From Kofleriaceae bacterium (GTDB lineage Bacteria; Myxococcota_A; Polyangia; Haliangiales; Haliangiaceae): a stretch of DNA of 64,000 bases. The stretch lies in the NCBI GenBank assembly GCA_046597055.1, contig JBKJLC010000293.1, positions 43,974 through 107,973 on the forward strand. The letters are read 5' to 3'. Made by a program: the position numbers and the translations under genes. The notes beneath the pieces were generated by a model, which was not told the DNA's origin, searched no databases, and worked only from the letters and a program-made list of their open reading frames with translations. This document shows positions 333-34,669 of this stretch, piece by piece (within the stretch, counting starts at the first letter, position 1; each line of letters begins with the position of its first letter).

Positions 333-965
333 TTACCGGGCGGGGGCCGCGACCGCGTCTGCCGCGGGCGCCGCCGGCCGGCTGGCCAGGGTGTCGGCGA
401 TCGCCGGCCCGGCCTGGGCAGCGATGCGTCCCATCGCCACGCTCAGCGCGCGGGCCAGGCCCTCGGGGGTCTGCACGGTGAGCGGCTCGACCTCCTCGTA
501 CTGCTCGGTCCACAGGTTGTCGCCGCTGATCACGTCGGTCAGGCGCAGCTCGACCACCACGCGACCGAGCCAGCGCCCCTTCGCCTCGTCGACCTCCTCG
601 ATCGCCGCGACCCGGCCGGTCAGCACCGCCGAGGCCTGCGGCGACGCCTCGCGCACGACCGAGCGGAAGCGGCCGCTGCGCTCGAGCGCGACCTCGAGGT
701 AGTTCGAGATCATGACGCCGGGCGCCGCGCTCCACCGGTGATAGTCGTAATAGTCGAACCGGTACGGGTTGGTCCGATACACGATGCGCTCGTCGTCGTA
801 GGCGGCATCGGTCGCCAGCGCCTCGAGCACCAGCACGGCCTCGCCGCCGGCGGTGCGCCCGGTGGGCGGCGACAGGTGGTAGTAGCGGGTGGTCGGCATC
901 TTGCCGCCACAGGCCGACCCGGCGCACGCGAGCGCCAGCGTCAACACGAGTCCGGTCGCTCTCAT
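333..965 (-). CDS. ABC-type transport auxiliary lipoprotein (PqiC-like)
   Basis: Lipobox-like N-terminus (ACAGSAC), YYHL and YDYHRW motifs; last gene of the mlaE-mlaF-mlaD operon, overlapping the mlaD stop. Confidence 0.75.
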   Translation of the reverse strand: MRATGLVLTLALACAGSACGGKMPTTRYYHLSPPTGRTAGGEAVLVLEALATDAAYDDERIVYRTNPYRFDYYDYHRWSAAPGVMISNYLEVALERSGRFRSVVREASPQASAVLTGRVAAIEEVDEAKGRWLGRVVVELRLTDVISGDNLWTEQYEEVEPLTVQTPEGLARALSVAMGRIAAQAGPAIADTLASRPAAPAADAVAAPAR

Positions 966-16532: not shown

Positions 16533-16658
16533 GCGCGGCGCGCGAAACAACTGCGCGATCTCATGGACGCCGCGGCGACCGCGACTCAGTTTTGTGAGGC
16601 TTGACCGCGGGTACCATCGCGGTTTACCCACGACGCGGGTCCGACCCGACCACCCCCC

Positions 16659-17390
<732 letters not shown>

Positions 17391-17437
17391 CCGAGCGGGG
17401 CCCCTGGGTGCCCCGCGACGCGTGCTAAAGACTGGCG

Positions 17438-19204
<1,767 letters not shown>

Positions 19205-25205: not shown

Positions 25206-25754
25206 TCACGAGGCCAGCTCCCCGTCGCTCTCGATCTCGCCGGTCCAGTACAAGTAGTCACGCCACGCGTCAGGCATCGACCGCGTGCTGACCCTGATCG
25301 TCACCGCCGGCACCCAGGTCGGGCGCGCCGGCTCCATCCGCAGCTTCATCCCGGCCTCGGCCGGCGTCCGGTTGCCCTTCGATCCGTTGCACGGATAGCA
25401 GCAGGTCACGATGTTCTCCCAGGTGGTCTTGCCGCCGCGGGCACGGGGAACCACGTGGTCGTAGGTCAGCTCCGCCAGCGTGCACTTGGTCGCGCAGTAC
25501 TGGCACTTGTAGCCGTCACGCGCGTAGATGTTCACGCGCGAGAACTTGACGGGCTTGCGGTATCGCCGGAACGCACGGATCAACCGCACGACCGCCGGCA
25601 CCTTGATGATGAGCGTCACCGCTCGGATCTCGGCGTCGTACTCCTCGACCACCTCCACCTTGCCGAGGGTCAGGAGGGTGATCGCCCGCTGCCACGGGAT
25701 GACCTTGATGGGCTCGTACCCCTGCGACAGGAGCAGCGTCGTCGCGTGACTCAT
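25206..25754 (-). CDS. HNH endonuclease (McrA-like) embedded in the tRNA array
   Basis: RDGYKCQYC, TYDHVVPRARGG, WENIVTCCYPCNGSKG; AGGA upstream. Confidence 0.92.
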   Translation of the reverse strand: MSHATTLLLSQGYEPIKVIPWQRAITLLTLGKVEVVEEYDAEIRAVTLIIKVPAVVRLIRAFRRYRKPVKFSRVNIYARDGYKCQYCATKCTLAELTYDHVVPRARGGKTTWENIVTCCYPCNGSKGNRTPAEAGMKLRMEPARPTWVPAVTIRVSTRSMPDAWRDYLYWTGEIESDGELAS

Positions 25755-26077: not shown

Positions 26078-26084
26078 GAAAGAC

Positions 26085-26212
26085 TGGGGTGGGTGGCCTG
26101 GATTCGAACCTGGCATCTGCGGCTCCCTGAGAACCCTCTTCTGACGGCCCGGTGACGGGCAAGCTGACGAGGAGGGGCCATAACCGCCGTCCTGCCACTG
26201 GACGACACCCAC
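26085..26212 (-). ncRNA. tRNA-Y RNA chimera 1 (permuted Ro-binding module in the anticodon loop)
   Basis: Acceptor GTGGGTG/CACCCAC-C-CCA, D and T arms intact, ~55-nt insert containing CTTGCCCG-TCAC-CGGGCCGT...GGGTTCTC. Confidence 0.75.
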
Positions 26213-26226
26213 GTACGAAGTAGCAG

Positions 26227-26353
26227 TGCAGGCAGCTGGACTCGAACCAGCGTCACACGCGTTAACACGATAACCATCCAGCGTCGGCCCGCGACCGGGC
26301 GAGGTGAGTACAGGACGGATCCACGTTGCGCTACCGGGCTGAGCTACACCTGC
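26227..26353 (-). ncRNA. tRNA-Y RNA chimera 2
   Basis: GCAGGTG/TGCCTGC-A; insert CCGTCC...CTCGCCCG-GTCG-CGGGCCGA...GGATGGTTATCG. Confidence 0.8.
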
Positions 26354-26374
26354 GAAGAAACACAACACGAGTCG

Positions 26375-26499
26375 TGTGGACGGCCGGAGTCGAACCGGCG
26401 CGTGCGGTTTGCGACGATAACCGACTTCGACGGCCCGTGACCGGGCGAGGGTTGTGAAGACGAGATCTTTCCGCCGTCCTACCGTTAGACGACGTCCAC
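26375..26499 (-). ncRNA. tRNA-Y RNA chimera 3
   Basis: GTGGACG/CGTCCAC-A; insert CTCGCCCG-GTCA-CGGGCCGT...CGGTTATCG. Confidence 0.8.
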
Positions 26500-26504
26500 G
26501 TGCG

Positions 26505-26632
26505 TGCAGGTGGCTGGATTCGAACCAGCGGCCAACGGATTGATAATCGATGACCATCCGACATCGGCCCGTCGCCGGGCGAGGTTGTGAAGGACGGGTT
26601 TACGTTGCTCTACCGGACTGAGCTACACCTGC
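26505..26632 (-). ncRNA. tRNA-Y RNA chimera 4
   Basis: GCAGGTG/CACCTGC-A; insert CCGTCC...CTCGCCCG-GCGA-CGGGCCGA...GGATGGTCATCG. Confidence 0.8.
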
Positions 26633-26647
26633 AAAGAAAAACATGCG

Positions 26648-26719
26648 TCTGGATGACTGGAATCGCACCAGCGGCCTCGTGATCCCCGAACACGCGCCCT
26701 GCTCCTGAGCTACACCCAG
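26648..26719 (-). tRNA. tRNA-Pro(GGG)
   Basis: C1:G72, A73, loop TC-GGG-GA (C33), T-loop TGCGATT. Confidence 0.82.
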
Positions 26720-26720
26720 A

Positions 26721-26819
26721 TGGGGCGGGACTTTGGATTCGAACCATGTAGACCGATAACCATCCATCGTTCGGCCCGTTTCCGGGCAAGGGCACTTTGA
26801 TAGACGGACTCGTCCCGCC
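26721..26819 (-). ncRNA. D-armless tRNA-Y RNA chimera 5 (acceptor, Ro module and T-loop)
   Basis: GGCGGGAC/GTCCCGCC-CCA; CCGTCT...CTTGCCCG-GAAA-CGGGCCGA...GGATGGTTATCG; TGG-TTCGAAT-CCA. Confidence 0.75.
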
Positions 26820-26824
26820 AGAAG

Positions 26825-26895: not shown

Positions 26896-26966
26896 TGGGG
26901 CAACGGCGGGAGTCGCACCCACTGACCGGCGGGAACCCCGCCGGTCCTCCACGCGAACTCGTTGCC
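26896..26966 (-). tRNA. Degenerate tRNA-like gene (GTT at the tip of an over-paired arm)
   Basis: GGCAACG/CGTTGCC acceptor and TGCGACT T-loop, but the anticodon arm is a perfect 10-bp hairpin. Confidence 0.45.
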
Positions 26967-26971
26967 ACGAG

Positions 26972-27038
26972 CACGCCGCCAGAGAATCGAACTCTGCAGT
27001 CCGGGGTTGGAATCCAGACTCTTCCCAGAAGGCGACGC
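26972..27038 (-). tRNA. tRNA-Trp(CCA), minimal D-arm
   Basis: GCGTCGC/GCGGCGT-G73, loop TT-CCA-AC. Confidence 0.7.
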
Positions 27039-27107
27039 AAGTTGCAAGCATCAACATGTCACTTCCACTCCCCTCCAGTTACAGCTCGAGAATAGAAGTG
27101 GCGATCG

Positions 27108-27177
27108 TGCCACCGACAGGATTCGAACCCGTACCGACGACGTTCGTAGCGTCGCGTCCCATCCTCGGGACGGTGGC
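27108..27177 (-). tRNA. tRNA-Arg(ACG)
   Basis: GCCACCG/CGGTGGC-A, loop CT-ACG-AA. Confidence 0.82.
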
Positions 27178-27179
27178 AG

Positions 27180-27372
27180 ACAGGCAAGTGGCTGTGTTGG
27201 AGTGCGCCTTGTTCAGGGGCGCGGCGTCCAGAGCGCGCGGTTGCCCGTTTACGCTCGTCGACACGCACGCGGCGATCTACGAGAGACCGCCTCGCGCTGG
27301 CTCGCATCGGTCGCCCGATGGTCGCTACCTTGGGCCCGTTATAGTTACGGTAACCAACACATTCCGGCCCGT
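27180..27372 (-). ncRNA. Y-like RNA carrying a 23S rRNA helix-69 mimic
   Basis: 5' ACGGGC-C-GG-AA-TGTGTTGG pairs with 3' CCAACACA-GCCAC-TT-GCCTGT; interior starts with CCGTAACTATAACGGGCCCAAGGTAGCGA (27322-27350); bounded by tRNAs on both sides. Confidence 0.75.
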
Positions 27373-27376
27373 GACG

Positions 27377-27449
27377 TATCCCTGGGGGGAATCGAACCCG
27401 CCATACCTGGTTTGAGAGACCAGTAGACTGACCACTGTCTGACAGGGAC
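27377..27449 (-). tRNA. tRNA-Glu(CTC)
   Basis: GTCCCTG/CAGGGAT-A, loop CT-CTC-AA. Confidence 0.85.
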
Positions 27450-27499
27450 ATCTTCGCGTGGCGCTTGCGCCCAAGGCGCCTCACGCCACGCGATCTTCG

Positions 27500-27572
27500 A
27501 GGGCCCGGCGGGAATCGAACCCGCACCTCGCAGTTTAACAGACTGCCGCTCAGCCAGTTGAGCTTCGGACCC
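27500..27572 (-). tRNA. tRNA-Asn(GTT)
   Basis: GGGTCCG/CGGGCCC-U73, loop CT-GTT-AA. Confidence 0.85.
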
Positions 27573-27644
27573 AGACACGCCACGGTCGTGAGACCGCGGC
27601 GCGTGCGTGTTGAGGGCGACTCTCGTCGTGGCCTGGGCCGAAGC

Positions 27645-29282
27645 CTAGGCGCGGGCGAAGTCGCTGATCACCGGCGGCGTCGCCGTGTCGAAACCGACCA
27701 CGTCGAGCATGCCGGCGTCGTTCGGGTCCGCGATCGTGAACCCGTTCGAGGTCATCCCGACCACCACCAGCTTGGCCGGGATGCCGCGCGCCTGTCGATA
27801 GGCGCGCAGGGCCTGGGCCGGGTGCACGCTCCCGGCCCAGGTCTCGCTGTCCGTGTACACCACGAAGGTGTCCACATCCACCTTGTGCCGCTGCGCCCAG
27901 ATCATCGGGAGCGCGCAGTCGGTTCCACCCATCGGCAGCTTGGCGACCGCCGCGACCACGTCGTCGAGCCGCTGGCGCGGCGAGATCGACAGGGTCGTGA
28001 TGCCCGACTCGCCACCGCCGTGCATGCCGCCGTAGCCACCGCTCGCCGCGGTGAAGCCCACGAACGTGTGGTCACGCTCGGTCGCCGCGGTGATCAGCGC
28101 CATCGCCGCGCTGCCGACCCGCGGCGTCAGGCCGGGCACCCCGGCGATGGTGCCGCACGCCATCGAGCCCGACACGTCGAGCGCGAGCAGCATGCGCTTG
28201 CCGGCCGGCTCGACCGCCTTGAACGAGGCGTAGAACGCACCGTCCAGGGCGTCGATGATCGGCGTCACCGGCGTCCAGGTGCCGCTGCCACGGACGCTCT
28301 TGCCACCCTGGTAGGTCAGGAGCGCCGCCAGGACCGCGACCGGGTGGACGCGGGCCTTGGCGATCCGGTTCGCATCACCCAGCCGCGCGACCACGGTGTT
28401 GGTCGCGTTGGCACCCGGCGCGAGCAAGCCCGCACGGGTCATCGTGGCCAGGTTCCGGATCATCGCCGTCATGGGCATGTCGACCAGCAGCGCGTCCCAC
28501 ACGCCGGCGTCGTTCAGCCAGCGCGTCGGCAGCGTCTCGCGCGGCAGCCGGAACTCGCGCACCAGCGCCGCCACCTCGGCCGCAGTACCGGCCGCCTTCA
28601 CCGCCTCCATGCCGATCAGCAACCGCAGCGCCGGGTCGGCGCTCGCGCCATCCGGCACGGTTCCCTTGGTCACCCACGAGAACAGCCGATCGTGCGATGG
28701 CGACGCGGCGCGCGGGTGCGCGAGCCGCAGCAGGTCTCGGTTCGACCAGCCGTCCCGCTGCTGGTACTTCACCAGCTGCAGCGCGAGGTCGGCCGCCGGC
28801 TTGTCGTTGAACCAGCCGGCCACCGCCTTGCGCATGCCACGGCCCCAGCCGCCGAAGCCCTGCGCGTACTCCGCGAAGTGCATGAGGTGAGTGCCGATGC
28901 GGCAGACCGTCGGCAGGGCAGCGTAGGCGCTCTTGCGAGTCGCCTCGTCGCCGAGCTTGGCGGCCAGCGCCAGGGCGAAGATCGCCGGGTCGTTCTTGGG
29001 CGCCCGACCCGCCTGCGAGATCTCGGCGATCCGCGCGACCGTGCGCGGACCGTCGGCTGCCACGCAGCGGACCACCGTCTGGGCAGTCTCGAGCGTCAGC
29101 TTCTGCTCGGAGATGTAGTAGGTGCCGCCCTCGCTACCCAGGATGAGGAAGCGATCGAGCCGCGCCCAGTCGTCGACCGGCCAGGCGAAGCCCCCGGCCA
29201 GGTTCGGCACCTGCGCCGTACCCGGGATCGGCTGCGACTGCGGCGTCGCCTGCGTCGAGAAGAACTTGGTGAACTTGAACAC
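27645..29282 (-). CDS. rsr: Ro60/Rsr (TROVE + vWA) RNA-binding protein, 545 aa
   Basis: NLAGGFAW, RFLILGSEGGTYY, GGWGRGMRKAV, KYQQRDGWSNRDLLRLAHP, AMIRNL, MIDAS LDVSGSM, GGTDCALP, YTDSETW, GMLDVVGFD; GGAGG 6 nt before GTG at 29282. Confidence 0.96.
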   Translation of the reverse strand: MFKFTKFFSTQATPQSQPIPGTAQVPNLAGGFAWPVDDWARLDRFLILGSEGGTYYISEQKLTLETAQTVVRCVAADGPRTVARIAEISQAGRAPKNDPAIFALALAAKLGDEATRKSAYAALPTVCRIGTHLMHFAEYAQGFGGWGRGMRKAVAGWFNDKPAADLALQLVKYQQRDGWSNRDLLRLAHPRAASPSHDRLFSWVTKGTVPDGASADPALRLLIGMEAVKAAGTAAEVAALVREFRLPRETLPTRWLNDAGVWDALLVDMPMTAMIRNLATMTRAGLLAPGANATNTVVARLGDANRIAKARVHPVAVLAALLTYQGGKSVRGSGTWTPVTPIIDALDGAFYASFKAVEPAGKRMLLALDVSGSMACGTIAGVPGLTPRVGSAAMALITAATERDHTFVGFTAASGGYGGMHGGGESGITTLSISPRQRLDDVVAAVAKLPMGGTDCALPMIWAQRHKVDVDTFVVYTDSETWAGSVHPAQALRAYRQARGIPAKLVVVGMTSNGFTIADPNDAGMLDVVGFDTATPPVISDFARA

Positions 29283-29288
29283 GGCACG

Positions 29289-29348
29289 CCTCCGGCCCAC
29301 GCGGTGGGCACTGCTGGTTGGGCTCGGCCACGCACCATGCGCGGCGAG
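29289..29348 (-). promoter_or_regulatory. Two bulged-C Ro-type hairpins in the rsr leader, one overlapping the SD
   Basis: CTCGCCGCGCA-TGG-TGCGTGGC-C-GAG (29323-29348) and TGCCCAC-CGC-GTGGGC-C-GGAGG (29289-29310). Confidence 0.5.
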
Positions 29349-29444
29349 CGAGATCTGTAATGAGGAATCGCTTCGCGAAGCGCTCGATGCCTCCCGGCGG
29401 CATCGCCGCCGCACCACCGGAGGTGGCGGACTGGCGAGTCTTCG

Positions 29445-29516: not shown

Positions 29517-29521
29517 GGAAA

Positions 29522-29587
29522 CTGGCGGACAAGTGGCACTCGTGGGGGTCTGTTATCAGGAGAACCCACGAGCATCGGCCCGCGCAG
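29522..29587 (-). ncRNA. Minimal Y RNA (canonical orientation)
   Basis: GCGGGC-C-GA-TG-CTCGTGGG-TTCTCC...CCCACGAG-TGCCAC-TT-GTCCGC; lies between two tRNAs just upstream of rsr. Confidence 0.8.
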
Positions 29588-29999: not shown

Positions 30000-30088
30000 G
30001 TTGTGCGGTCGCCGCCGACCGCTGGGGAGCGGGTGACGACGACCTTCCGAAATGGGCGCCCGCGCTACCGGGCGCCCCATCATTCGTC

Positions 30089-30107
30089 TCTTCGGTTGTC
30101 AGAGATC
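30089..30107 (-). promoter_or_regulatory. boxA-like antitermination element
   Basis: GATCTCTGACAACCGAAGA resembles rrn leader/spacer boxA sequences; located near the 5' end of the array. Confidence 0.5.
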
Positions 30108-30177
30108 CACCCCGCGCGTCCGTCGGCCCGTGCGGGCAGACCTCGAGCGGGGCCGCGCCGTTTCATGGGCGCAGCAG

Positions 30178-31745: not shown

Positions 31746-31864
31746 GCGATGACTGACCGGCGCGGAGCCGCGGCTGACCGGGGGCCCACCGGCAGGGCGG
31801 GCCCGCGCCGGGCCGCGGACGCCGGGGGGTAGCGAAGGGGTCGGGAGTCGAGTAAGTCTGGCCG

Positions 31865-34669
31865 GTGCCCGCGCGCTACCTGATCGGCGTCGATCTCGGG
31901 ACGACCAACACCGCGGTCGCCTACGTGGACACGCGCGCGACCGACCCACGCGTGAAGGTGTTCGAGGTCGTGCAGCTGGTTGCCCCCGGTGAGGTCGCCC
32001 CTCGCCGGCAGCTGCCATCGTTCCTGTACCTGCCGGGCGAGCACGATCTGGCGCCTGCCGAGACCGCGCTGCCGTGGCGACCGGTCGGCGCCGCCGGCGA
32101 CAACCGCATCGTGGTCGGCGAGCTCGCCCGTCACCAGGGCGCGCGCAACCCGTCGCGGATGATCGCCTCGGCCAAGTCCTGGCTGTGCCACCCGGGCGTC
32201 GACCGCAAGGCCGCCATCTTGCCGTGGGGCGAGGGCAGCGGACCGCGGCTGTCGCCGGTGGCCGCCCAGGCAGCGATCCTCGCGCACGTGCGGGCGGCCT
32301 GGGACGACCTGATGTCCGGGGAACCGGACAGCCAGTTCGTGGCCCAGGACGTCGTGGTCACCTGCCCCGCCTCGTTCGACGAGGCCGCCCGCGAGCTGAC
32401 CCAGGAGGCGGCCGCGCTGGCCGGCCTCGAGCGGGTGGTGCTGCTCGAGGAGCCCCAGGCGGCGTTCTATGCCTGGATCGATCGCCACCACAGCCGGGCC
32501 CGCACGCTCGCGCCCGGCGAGCGCGTGCTGGTGTTCGACGTCGGCGGCGGGACGTCGGACTTCACGCTGATCACGGTCGACGCCGACGGCGGCTTCGAGC
32601 GCACCGCGGTCGGCGATCATCTGCTCCTCGGTGGCGACAACGTCGACCTGACCCTGGCCAAGCTGGTCGAGCAGCGGCTCACCGCCGATGGCGGCAAGAA
32701 GCTCGATGCCCTCCAGTGGCACGGTCTGGTCCACGCCTGCCGGCTGGCCAAGGAGACGCTGCTGGGCGACGCCGCCCCGGCCGAGGTGCCGATCACCGTC
32801 GCCAGCCGCGGCTCGCGCTTGATCGGCGGCACGCTGCGCGACCAGATCACGCGCGCGGAGCTCGAGCGGGTGCTGTTCGACGGCTTCTTCCCGGTCGCGA
32901 CCGCCGACGCCACCCCGGTCCGCGGCCGCGGCGGCCTGCAGGAGATGGGGCTGCCGTACGCGAGCGACCCGGCGGTGACGCGGCACCTGGCGTCGTTCCT
33001 GGCCCGCCACGGCGCGGCCCGGGTCGACGCGGTGCTGTTCAATGGTGGCGCCATGACTCCAGTCGCGCTGCGCGCGCGCGTGCTCGGGCAGCTGGCGGCG
33101 TGGCAGCCCGATGCGCCACCCCCGCGCGAGCTCGAGGCGATCGCACCCGAGCTGGCGGTCGCCGTGGGCGCCGCCTATTACGGGCTGGTCCGGCGCGGCC
33201 TGGCGACCCGCATCCGCGGTGGTACTCCGCGCGCGTTCTACATCGGCGTGGCGCGCGTGGCGGCGTCGGGCGGCGTCGCCGCGGCGCGGGTCGAGACCCA
33301 CACCGCGGTGTGCCTGGCCGGCAAGGGTCTCGACGAGGGCACCACGGTCGAGCTCGACCGCGACTTCGAGCTGGTGACCAACCGTCCGGTGCGGTTCCGG
33401 TTGTACTCGTCGAGCACGCGGACTGACCCGCCCGGCACGCTGGTGCCGATCGGCGATGGCCGCGCCGACACGATCGACGACGGCTCCGATCTGCTCGAGC
33501 TGCCGCCGATCGTCACGGTGCTGCGCGCGCGCGGCAAGAGCGCGGTCACGGTCCGGGTCCAGGCGACCGTCACCGAGCTGGGCGCGGTCGAGATCTGGTG
33601 CCACGACGTCGCCGATCCGACCGCGCGCTGGCGGCTATCGTTCGACGTACGCTCGGGTGGCTCGCCGGCGGCCGACGACGACACCGCGGCCAGCGCGGCG
33701 CCGCACCCGCGCATCGACGAGGCCAAGGCGCGCGTGACCGACGGGTTCCGCGGCGACCCCGGGCTGCTGGCGCCGCTCACGCGCGAGCTCGAGGAGATGC
33801 TCGAGGCGCGGCGCGACGAGTGGTCGATGCACGCGACCCGCGCGCTGTTCGACGCCCTGGCCGACGTGGTCGAGACCCGGCGTCGGTCGGCCGATCACGA
33901 GCAGCGCTGGCTCGGCCTGGCCGGGTTCTGCCTCCGGCCCGGCACCGGCGCCCCGCTCGACGCCTGGCGGGCGCGCCAGATGTGGGGCGTGTTCAACGAG
34001 GGGCTGGTCCACGGCAAGACCGAGGCGTCGCGGCTGGCCTGGTGGATCGTGTGGCGGCGGATCGCCGGCGGCCTCATCCCGGGCCAGCAGGAGCAGATCT
34101 ACGACCGGCTGGCGACGCTGCTGTTGCCGAGCGCGCGCCAGCAGAAGAAGCTGAGCGAGATCAAGCCGTCGAAGCAGGAGCTCGGTGAGATGTGGCGCGC
34201 GGTCGCCAGCCTCGAGCGCATCCCGGTCGCGCACAAGCTGAAGCTCGGCGACGAGCTGATGCGGCGGATGGAGACCCGCAAGGGTCGCGAGGACGCTGTC
34301 CACCTGTGGGCGCTCGGCCGGATCGCCGCGCGGGTACCGCTGTACGGGCCGCTCAACACGGTCGTGCCGGCGTCGAAGGCGGCGGCGTGGCTCGACCAGC
34401 TGCTGGTGTGGGACTGGCCGGAGCCCGACAAGGTCGCCTTCTCGCTGGCGCAGCTCGGCCGGCGCACCGACGACCGCACCCGCGAGCTCTCGGAGCCGCT
34501 GCGCGCGCGCCTGGCCGCCTACCTGCGCGGGCAACCCGGCGGCGACCGCGCCGCGATCCTGGTCGAGCAGGTGGTCGCGCTCGAGGCCCGCGAGGAGCGG
34601 GTCGCGCTCGGCGACACGCTGCCGGCCGGCTTGCGGCTGATGGTCGACGACCCGCCGCCCCCGGCGTGA
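31865..34669 (+). CDS. Large Hsp70-like protein with C-terminal extension (DUF3731-like)
   Basis: GVDLGTTN, EEPQAAF, DVGGGTSD; C-terminal GFCLRPG, WRRIAGGL, WALGRIAARVPLYG. Confidence 0.88.
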   Translation: MPARYLIGVDLGTTNTAVAYVDTRATDPRVKVFEVVQLVAPGEVAPRRQLPSFLYLPGEHDLAPAETALPWRPVGAAGDNRIVVGELARHQGARNPSRMIASAKSWLCHPGVDRKAAILPWGEGSGPRLSPVAAQAAILAHVRAAWDDLMSGEPDSQFVAQDVVVTCPASFDEAARELTQEAAALAGLERVVLLEEPQAAFYAWIDRHHSRARTLAPGERVLVFDVGGGTSDFTLITVDADGGFERTAVGDHLLLGGDNVDLTLAKLVEQRLTADGGKKLDALQWHGLVHACRLAKETLLGDAAPAEVPITVASRGSRLIGGTLRDQITRAELERVLFDGFFPVATADATPVRGRGGLQEMGLPYASDPAVTRHLASFLARHGAARVDAVLFNGGAMTPVALRARVLGQLAAWQPDAPPPRELEAIAPELAVAVGAAYYGLVRRGLATRIRGGTPRAFYIGVARVAASGGVAAARVETHTAVCLAGKGLDEGTTVELDRDFELVTNRPVRFRLYSSSTRTDPPGTLVPIGDGRADTIDDGSDLLELPPIVTVLRARGKSAVTVRVQATVTELGAVEIWCHDVADPTARWRLSFDVRSGGSPAADDDTAASAAPHPRIDEAKARVTDGFRGDPGLLAPLTRELEEMLEARRDEWSMHATRALFDALADVVETRRRSADHEQRWLGLAGFCLRPGTGAPLDAWRARQMWGVFNEGLVHGKTEASRLAWWIVWRRIAGGLIPGQQEQIYDRLATLLLPSARQQKKLSEIKPSKQELGEMWRAVASLERIPVAHKLKLGDELMRRMETRKGREDAVHLWALGRIAARVPLYGPLNTVVPASKAAAWLDQLLVWDWPEPDKVAFSLAQLGRRTDDRTRELSEPLRARLAAYLRGQPGGDRAAILVEQVVALEAREERVALGDTLPAGLRLMVDDPPPPA

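Follow-up and report, generated by a model that had tools for sequence, protein, structure and literature searches.

A Y-like RNA with an element resembling helix 69 of 23S rRNA in tRNA arrays of Myxococcota

The tRNA array and its Glu-Arg spacer

The sequence analysed here, which we call the window, is a stretch of 64,000 nucleotides from a MAG of a Kofleriaceae bacterium (8.4 Mb, 303 contigs, 72% GC, 7.55% contamination). At ~23.8-30.4 kb of the window, a tRNA array of 6.8 kb with 25-26 tRNA genes is located on the minus strand, and rsr, the gene of a Ro60 orthologue, sits within this array. On the minus strand, rsr is followed by tRNA-Asn, tRNA-Glu(CTC), a spacer of 198 nt (27375-27178) and tRNA-Arg(ACG). 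The RNA of this spacer, called H69-type RNA below, starts 270 nt downstream of rsr. The features are listed in the minus-strand order, and members are the homologous RNAs described in the next section.

27645..29417, minus strand: rsr, Ro60 orthologue with TROVE and Ro60 vWA domains (E 5e-45 and 8e-64)
27376..27449, minus strand: tRNA-Glu(CTC), synteny kept in 12/12 same-genus loci; its 3' processing would set the 5' end of the RNA
27180..27372, minus strand: predicted mature H69-type Y-like RNA, 193 nt (complete inter-tRNA spacer, 27178-27375)
27364..27372, minus strand: 5' strand of P1, ACGGGCCGG, a Ro60-binding-type motif with C27366 unpaired (MFE fold; GGGCCG in 29/31 members)
27354..27361, minus strand: 5' strand of P2, UGUGUUGG (MFE fold; covariation)
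27336..27350, minus strand: H69-like hairpin CCGU-AACUAUA-ACGG, equivalents of 23S 1908-1922 (15-mer exact in 24/31 members, loop intact in 26/31)
27322..27335, minus strand: strand GCCCAAGGUAGCGA, equivalents of 23S 1923-1936, including a C1925-G1929-type pair (CG in 27 rows, AU in 3)
27305..27320, minus strand: GNRA-capped hairpin CAUCGG-GCGA-CCGAUG at the H70/H71 position (compensatory changes at 6/6 pairs)
27204..27297, minus strand: three more multiloop hairpins (27297-27265, 27264-27224 and 27222-27204), variable between lineages
27193..27200, minus strand: 3' strand of P2, CCAACACA (24 members with 19 different P2 helices, pairing kept at nearly every position)
27180..27188, minus strand: 3' strand of P1, CUUGCCUGU (MFE fold; compensatory changes across members)
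27107..27177, minus strand: tRNA-Arg(ACG); RNase P, cutting at its 5' end, would leave the RNA with a 3' terminus at 27178

Besides rsr, the sole protein gene in the array is an ORF for an HNH endonuclease of 182 aa (25206-25754, minus strand). The array is flanked by two Hsp70-like genes with DUF2760 and DUF3731 partners (16605-19204 and 31856-34669, plus strand), and the other neighbours are ordinary signalling genes (Ser/Thr kinase, PP2C, PilZ and SpoIIE-type phosphatase). No defence genes were seen in the neighbourhood of the array, the chromosomal genes there being of an ordinary kind.

The MFE fold of the RNA (-92 kcal/mol; z = -3.33 against shuffles) consists of P1, P2, the H69 hairpin, the GNRA-capped hairpin and three more hairpins in one multiloop. 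P1 is a closing stem of the Y-RNA type (GGGC[C]G / UUGCC). Of 16 members folded, 15 have an MFE structure in which P1 and P2 enclose the rest of the RNA as a helix of paired ends with an unpaired C. The initial annotation had proposed a Y-like RNA from the pairing of the spacer ends, and this proposal has stood: the minus-strand ends pair as a Y-type stem (P1 and P2) and the RNA is linked to rsr. The stretch GCCACUUG, which it had reported as common to this RNA and the 70-nt Y-like spacer at 29517-29586, is also found in both. The 29-mer that resembles 23S rRNA, CCGUAACUAUAACGGGCCCAAGGUAGCGA (27350-27322), comes after a UUA linker that follows the 5' strand of P2. In the 3' multiloop hairpins, GCGUGUC...GGACGC has been kept within the genus.

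According to the cited part of Chen et al. (2014; PMC4201824), bacterial Y RNAs have a 5' motif of either GNCGAAN0-1G or the vertebrate-like GGUCCGA. Besides the GGGCCG listed above, GGNCCGA is present in 17 and GNCGAAN0-1G in 14 (two in another register) of the 31 members, and the window copy reads GGGCCGG, which is one base off both published Ro motifs.

Likeness to 23S rRNA and occurrence among genomes

Because no 23S gene was found in the source assembly, either by pattern or by the Rfam LSU model, the 23S comparison was made with relatives. In the 23S genes of eight relatives within the family and class, the corresponding stretch is CCGTAACTATAACGGTCCTAAGGTAGCGA, which is identical to the window 29-mer at 27 of 29 positions, the same count as had been noted initially for E. 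coli with the H69 loop intact. The unmutated 29-mer is located at 1910-1938 of the PGAP-annotated 2906-nt E. coli 23S gene; this agrees with the earlier placing at 1908-1936, which we take to be the conventional numbering, if the annotation begins 2 nt before the conventional +1. When the 23S of a relative is aligned to Rfam LSU, the 29-mer is seen to span four of the six H69 pairs with the 7-nt loop, the C-UAA-G element and the strand into the H70/H71 hairpin. BLAST of the spacer against one relative's 23S gave an E-value of 1.2e-7. When the whole 6.8-kb array was compared with the 23S, 16S and 5S of this same relative, the 29-mer was matched (E 6.5e-6) and no further significant rRNA match was found on either strand, in agreement with the initial statement that no other rRNA sequence is recognisable nearby.

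Similarity collinear with 23S was absent beyond this single element, and the Rfam LSU model found nothing in the genome. A second collinear likeness, AGCGAAGYAGCA, ~70 nt further in 23S, has 11/12 identities with an E-value of 9-24 and was treated as chance. No Rfam 15 family was found in 27178-27375 at the gathering score or E<=10; for YrlA (RF02553) and tRNA, no match was obtained there even at E<=10.

Across the H69-type RNAs, 24-29 of 29 positions are identical to 23S H69 and 1923-1936 (the bridge B2a/B2b region), and C1925-G1929, a pair in the LSU structure of Rfam, is present too. Three parts of this 23S region have not been copied, namely the two basal H69 pairs, the 9-nt AAAUUCCUU bulge and the H71 sequence. 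In the 31-member alignment, positions equivalent to 1906/1907 read UA or AU, and 1923 varies. The initial annotation had described a hairpin roughly where H71 would lie, and here its reading needs to be narrowed: the hairpin is GNRA-capped with a freely varying stem and without significant H71 sequence likeness. The 48 nt after GGUAGCGA were above shuffles (p<=0.05) in only one of the 23 members tested, and because this sequence was no more 23S-like than shuffles in the other 22, the correspondence to H71 is positional only.

The 31 members are identical to the 23S 29-mer at 29 positions in 7 cases, 28 in 11, 27 in 5 and 24-26 in 8, and the H69 loop is altered in five of them. The flanking helices turn over freely while the H69 part is almost invariant: the distinct versions of P2 listed above keep their pairing, the outer pair of P1 is A-U, G-C, G-U or U-A with an additional C-G to U-A change, and the GNRA hairpin has double changes at every pair. 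Pairs of the rRNA type covary as well, U1911-A1919 having become A-U in one member and C1925-G1929 A-U in three. In the covariation alignment of the 31 members, which was fitted to the model and therefore favours pairing, 96% of cells are paired and 8 of 11 pairs have compensatory changes, a level reached by 0/500 shuffles. RNAalifold on the raw MAFFT alignment gave local pairings (GGCCG/CGGUU and GCGA/UUGC) in place of P1 and P2; these were rejected in view of the covariation of P2 and a misalignment in the 3' half. These sequence patterns indicate that the rRNA copy is under selection; taken with the occurrence in other genomes given below, it is neither a chimera nor a relic.

By blastn, the spacer is present in 11 of the 16 other genomes of the genus, and the order Asn-Glu-RNA-Arg was detected by Aragorn in all 12 same-genus loci. 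The H69 segment thus occurs in homologous spacers of related genomes, a point on which the initial annotation had staked its claim. A covariance model was built on the 5' 75 nt of the RNA, with which family members score 71-99 bits and real 23S sequences 31-35 bits. In a search of 151 genomes sampled evenly across the phylum, high scores were obtained from the source genome and one congener alone. In the family, the RNA was found in 42 of 138 genomes, as a single copy in each, and the carriers belong to three genera (13/17 with the source genome counted, 27/91 and 2/4; 0/26 in fourteen other genera).

Orthologues of rsr are present in 83 of the 138 genomes; the unpublished genome G237 is counted for both the RNA and rsr, and G238 for rsr, no sequence of either being used. 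All but one of the 42 RNA carriers have rsr (41/42), the exception being a 73% complete genome, and in 40/42 a distance of 113-794 nt separates rsr from the RNA downstream of it, both being on one strand of one contig. Among the rsr-negative genomes of the family, one of 55 carries the RNA, and relatives in these counts are not independent. Since 42 rsr-positive genomes of the family are without the RNA at E<=1e-7, the H69 module is dispensable for Rsr; the eight of these genomes that were looked at have Y-like RNAs of other kinds in its stead.

When 185,579 species genomes were scanned with an exact pattern, 19 matches were obtained, i.e., 5 true 23S variants and 14 family members. These 14 are all in MAGs titled Kofleriaceae, Haliangiales, Myxococcales or Polyangiales and come from different projects, and rsr adjoins the RNA in 12 of them. 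Two Polyangiales members begin with GGGGGCGG in a gene-free spacer; no rsr or tRNA was found within 4 kb of them, and both genomes encode a divergent TROVE/vWA protein elsewhere. In one Polyangiales MAG (L043, G062), the TROVE/vWA gene, with 28% identity to the window Rsr, is located in an array of 16 tRNAs in 4.3 kb, and the H69-type RNA is on another contig. As for phages, blastn with 27100-27460 found no match among 50,697 phage records, and a phage origin was dropped; when IMG/VR was searched for the 29-mer, two positions being left free, the one match was a true 23S resembling that of E. coli at the end of a contig.

Metagenomes were scanned with the pattern GGGCCG, 8-22 nt, CGTAACTATAACGG, and 75 matches, two of them real 23S, were obtained in 74 contigs, with ~20 chance matches expected from a rough size estimate. 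Four of the matches (L134, L183, L135 and L165) are without the Y-type closure and may be chance. The sequence goes on with an AAGGUA-type strand, which is outside the search pattern, in 64 matches (50 distinct). A Rsr homologue (44-94% identity) is encoded on 37 of the 74 contigs, and in 32 of these 37 the RNA lies at most 500 nt downstream of it. The minimal member, L130, has 94 nt and consists of P1, P2, the H69 hairpin and the GNRA hairpin only. On contig L181 (695-967, minus strand), two diverged H69-type RNAs stand in tandem ~238 nt apart, the second one without the GGUAGCGA strand.

Sequencing runs have also provided information on the locus and its RNA. A contig of 5608 nt from a DNA run, made with another assembler, covers 26900-27700 with 0 differences, and this run may be the source sample. 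A metatranscriptome contig of 168 nt from a close relative reads 27301 to 27178, 5 nt, and then 27372 to 27333, with 0 differences from the window in 40 nt and 5 differences plus one gap in 124 nt; identical contigs are found in RNA runs X16 and X17, which are possibly one data set. In a size-fractionated library of a second study, 27192-27327 was found directly between adapters with the same variant letters. RNA-derived contigs of a close relative do cover the RNA, these contigs giving neither level nor strand. The 31 nt missing from the first contig correspond to one assembler word bordering the H69 segment, and in our reading the assembly graph would fork there on account of rRNA and of other members of the family. 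The RNA runs examined do not cover the flanking tRNAs and cover rsr only at 27645-27698 (X20), which is not evidence of absence. Of the 20 listed runs, 17 contain only small shares of the sequence words. These runs tell nothing on habitat.

Because the metatranscriptome contig joins the 3' end to the 5' end, the ends of the spacer are taken to be the ends of the molecule. This joint could derive from a circular RNA, from a ligase artefact in library making, or from a tandem gene in the relative. It is absent from the DNA run; concerning the tandem gene, L181 does have tandem copies, but the RNA is single in 42/42 genomes. RtcB was considered as a linked ligase and rejected, its four paralogs being on contigs C264, C68, C181 and C210 and none on the window's contig.

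Interpretation and alternative explanations

Our preferred reading, to which we give a probability of about 0.6, places the RNA in a new subclass of bacterial Y RNA, with an effector module that mimics H69 in the way the module of YrlA mimics tRNA and that is recognised by an H69 ligand. To judge from sequence and gene order, four features of Y RNAs described in the cited part of Chen et al. (2014; PMC4201824) appear to be combined here, i.e., linkage to rsr, a closing helix with an unpaired C, a 5' GGGCCG(A) and a modular build. That paper also reports that YrlA, a mimic of tRNA, undergoes modification by TruB and DusA, and that Rsr acts in 23S maturation, an action which Y RNA inhibits.

YrlA (RF02553), known from Salmonella and many bacteria, is the closest of the systems considered. 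As far as the published description cited goes, it is adjacent to rsr, has a 5' motif of the GNCGAA type and paired ends, and joins a Ro-binding stem to an effector module that copies an RNA of translation, as the H69-type RNA would do. The module of YrlA copies the T and D arms of tRNA, whereas that of the H69-type RNA copies 23S H69 and its 3' strand; unlike YrlA, the H69-type RNA is flanked by tRNAs and is probably freed by tRNA processing. In Yrn1 of Deinococcus radiodurans and metazoan Y RNAs, as far as their published outline goes, both ends form a helix with a bulged C (GGUCCGA/UUGAC), as in the H69-type RNA, and these RNAs have been proposed to be a gate and tether for Ro60; their effector loops differ in that they bind PNPase or other proteins. 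We know of no rRNA likeness in these loops. The principle of a short RNA copying a protein-binding site of rRNA is already in print for leaders of ribosomal-protein operons. These leaders are cis-acting and upstream of the regulated gene, whereas the H69-type RNA is stand-alone, between tRNAs or, in Polyangiales, in a gene-free spacer, and no ribosomal-protein gene was found near the H69-type RNA loci examined. In the open full-text literature searched, no paper joins Y RNA or Rsr with helix 69 and none deals with a stand-alone mimic of 23S or H69.

If the H69-type RNA is a Y RNA, it would be cut from the transcript of the tRNA array as the complete Glu-Arg spacer, its ends being made by the enzymes of tRNA 3' and 5' processing. 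The helix GGGCCG(A)/UUGCC with its unpaired C, of the kind to which Ro60/Rsr binds in other Y RNAs, would bind Rsr, as the motif and the gene linkage suggest, and the displayed module would be a miniature of the 23S subunit-interface element, with the H69 hairpin, the 7-nt loop, the strand 1923-1936 and a GNRA hairpin. The module most likely acts by molecular mimicry, a natural ligand of H69 recognising it, and it would then either tether Rsr, with any nuclease that works with it, to this ligand or keep the ligand from the 50S subunit by competition. Contacts of bridges B2a and B2b are borne by the H69 loop and the strand that follows. Because the copied loop and strand carry these contacts and Rsr is already tied to rRNA maturation and decay, we favour as ligand the 30S subunit at its decoding-site face (h44/h45, bridges B2a/B2b); docking there might give Rsr a route to free small subunits. 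Since the basal pairs of H69 and H71 are not copied, the full B2a/B2b/B3 surface is not reproduced, and an isolated H69 hairpin may be too weak a binder of 30S. A fuller scenario is doubtful in our estimation: the Ro60-bound RNA would dock on h44/h45 of free 30S where 50S would, and would either deliver a Ro60-exonuclease for quality control or starvation decay or block 50S, and it may also be circularised in vivo, at which the 3'-to-5' joint of the RNA contigs hints. The H69-specific enzymes (an RluD-type pseudouridine synthase, RlmH and TlyA) probably also act on the module, and modification of the RluD type would be a safe prediction by analogy with TruB and DusA on YrlA.

Among the alternatives, one in which the RNA works without Ro60 supposes that it imitates the substrate of a protein specific for H69 (RluD, RlmH, TlyA, RRF, a release factor or HflX) or titrates this protein, and so regulates how much of it is available, the adjacency to rsr reflecting only co-transcription. 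The conserved part is what such proteins meet on 50S, namely the loop and the base strand, the Polyangiales members stand away from rsr, and YrlA is itself a substrate of tRNA-modifying enzymes (cited part of PMC4201824). We nevertheless consider this explanation unlikely, since rsr accompanies the RNA in nearly all carriers and the RNA is found in hardly any rsr-negative genome, with the reservation that relatives are not independent, and since the GGGCCG closing helix is conserved and common to other Y-like RNAs of the same arrays. The RNA might instead be a decoy against a ribotoxin or antibiotic directed at H69, which would take up nucleases, modifying toxins or drugs that bind H69 (tuberactinomycin or aminoglycoside type) in place of the ribosomes. 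tRNA arrays can counter toxins that target tRNA, and a decoy would suit the array as a spare translation kit. The letter-exact loop in most members and the location in a tRNA array are consistent with this, and H69-cleaving nucleases do occur naturally, Ribocin being one according to the cited part of PMC13189344. A small RNA from one gene copy would, however, face thousands of ribosomes, the tight linkage to rsr and the Y-type stem would be left without account, and no defence genes were seen nearby; a decoy is therefore even less probable in our view.

Readings without function carry little weight. The matched stretch is universally conserved rRNA and is complete in seven members, as would be expected of a functionless piece of 23S that was captured in the array or is kept alike by gene conversion. 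But only 29 nt are involved and nothing else in the array is rRNA-like; the element has been kept in three genera, in Polyangiales MAGs and in ~50 distinct metagenome variants while adjacent helices turned over, compensatory changes keep two rRNA pairs, and gene conversion would hardly leave positions 1906/1907 and 1923 consistently different from 23S, so that we regard a relic as very improbable. The initial annotation had also thought of an assembly chimera, and contamination of the MAG contig by rRNA reads might be suspected in a genome so fragmented, so contaminated and with no assembled 23S. However, 41 further genomes have the same arrangement, as do 14 named MAG contigs of different projects, and the 5608-nt contig agrees without differences, its run being possibly the source sample; because independent genomes hold the locus, we regard a chimera as refuted, with next to no probability left. 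On the other side, several observations speak against our preferred reading, a Y RNA with an H69 mimic: the window motif GGGCCGG matches neither published Ro motif exactly, two Polyangiales members are away from rsr and tRNAs, the members with altered H69 loops make up 5/31, and 42 rsr-positive genomes lack the RNA.

The effector modules of bacterial Ro60-Y RNA particles known so far bind PNPase or mimic tRNA, and an H69-type Y RNA, with its copy of the hairpin that bears the heaviest functional load in the large subunit, would be a testable link of Ro60 to ribosome surveillance. It would also provide a natural minimal H69 construct that has evolved to fold on its own, and the tRNA arrays of Myxococcota would be seen to carry a panel of mimic RNAs besides tRNAs.

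Other Y-like RNAs in the arrays

Judging from the sequences of neighbouring spacers, the H69-type RNA appears to be one of a local panel of mimic RNAs in the array. A minimal Y-like RNA is encoded in the 70-nt spacer between tRNA-Gly and tRNA-Thr just upstream of rsr (29517-29586, minus strand), with a closing helix GCGGGCCGA / CUUGUCCGC, a second helix CUCGUGGG/CCCACGAG and a 17-nt loop. Another spacer RNA, of 104 nt (26720-26823, minus strand), is tRNA-shaped, with acceptor-like ends GGCGGGAC/GUCCCGCC and a T-arm GGUUCGAAUCC; it has a Ro-type helix closed by a tetraloop (CUUGCCCG-GAAA-CGGGCCGAA) and looks like a circularly permuted YrlA, and its Rfam matches are weak only (tRNA-Sec, 19.9 bits). 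Sub-threshold YrlA (RF02553) matches are found in 26078-26700 on the minus strand (26573-26700 with 31 bits and E 0.001, 26470-26537 and 26158-26280), within a 569-nt tRNA-free stretch of the array. The 177-nt spacer at 30000-30176 (minus strand) has ACGGGCCGACGG and is a candidate Y-like RNA. In the rsr-positive loci without the H69 RNA, L107 (G276; 379-798, minus strand) and L108-L114, up to three tandem Y-like RNAs are present downstream of rsr; they begin with CGGGCCGAAGAUGGAUGGUUA, and their interiors differ from the H69 type.
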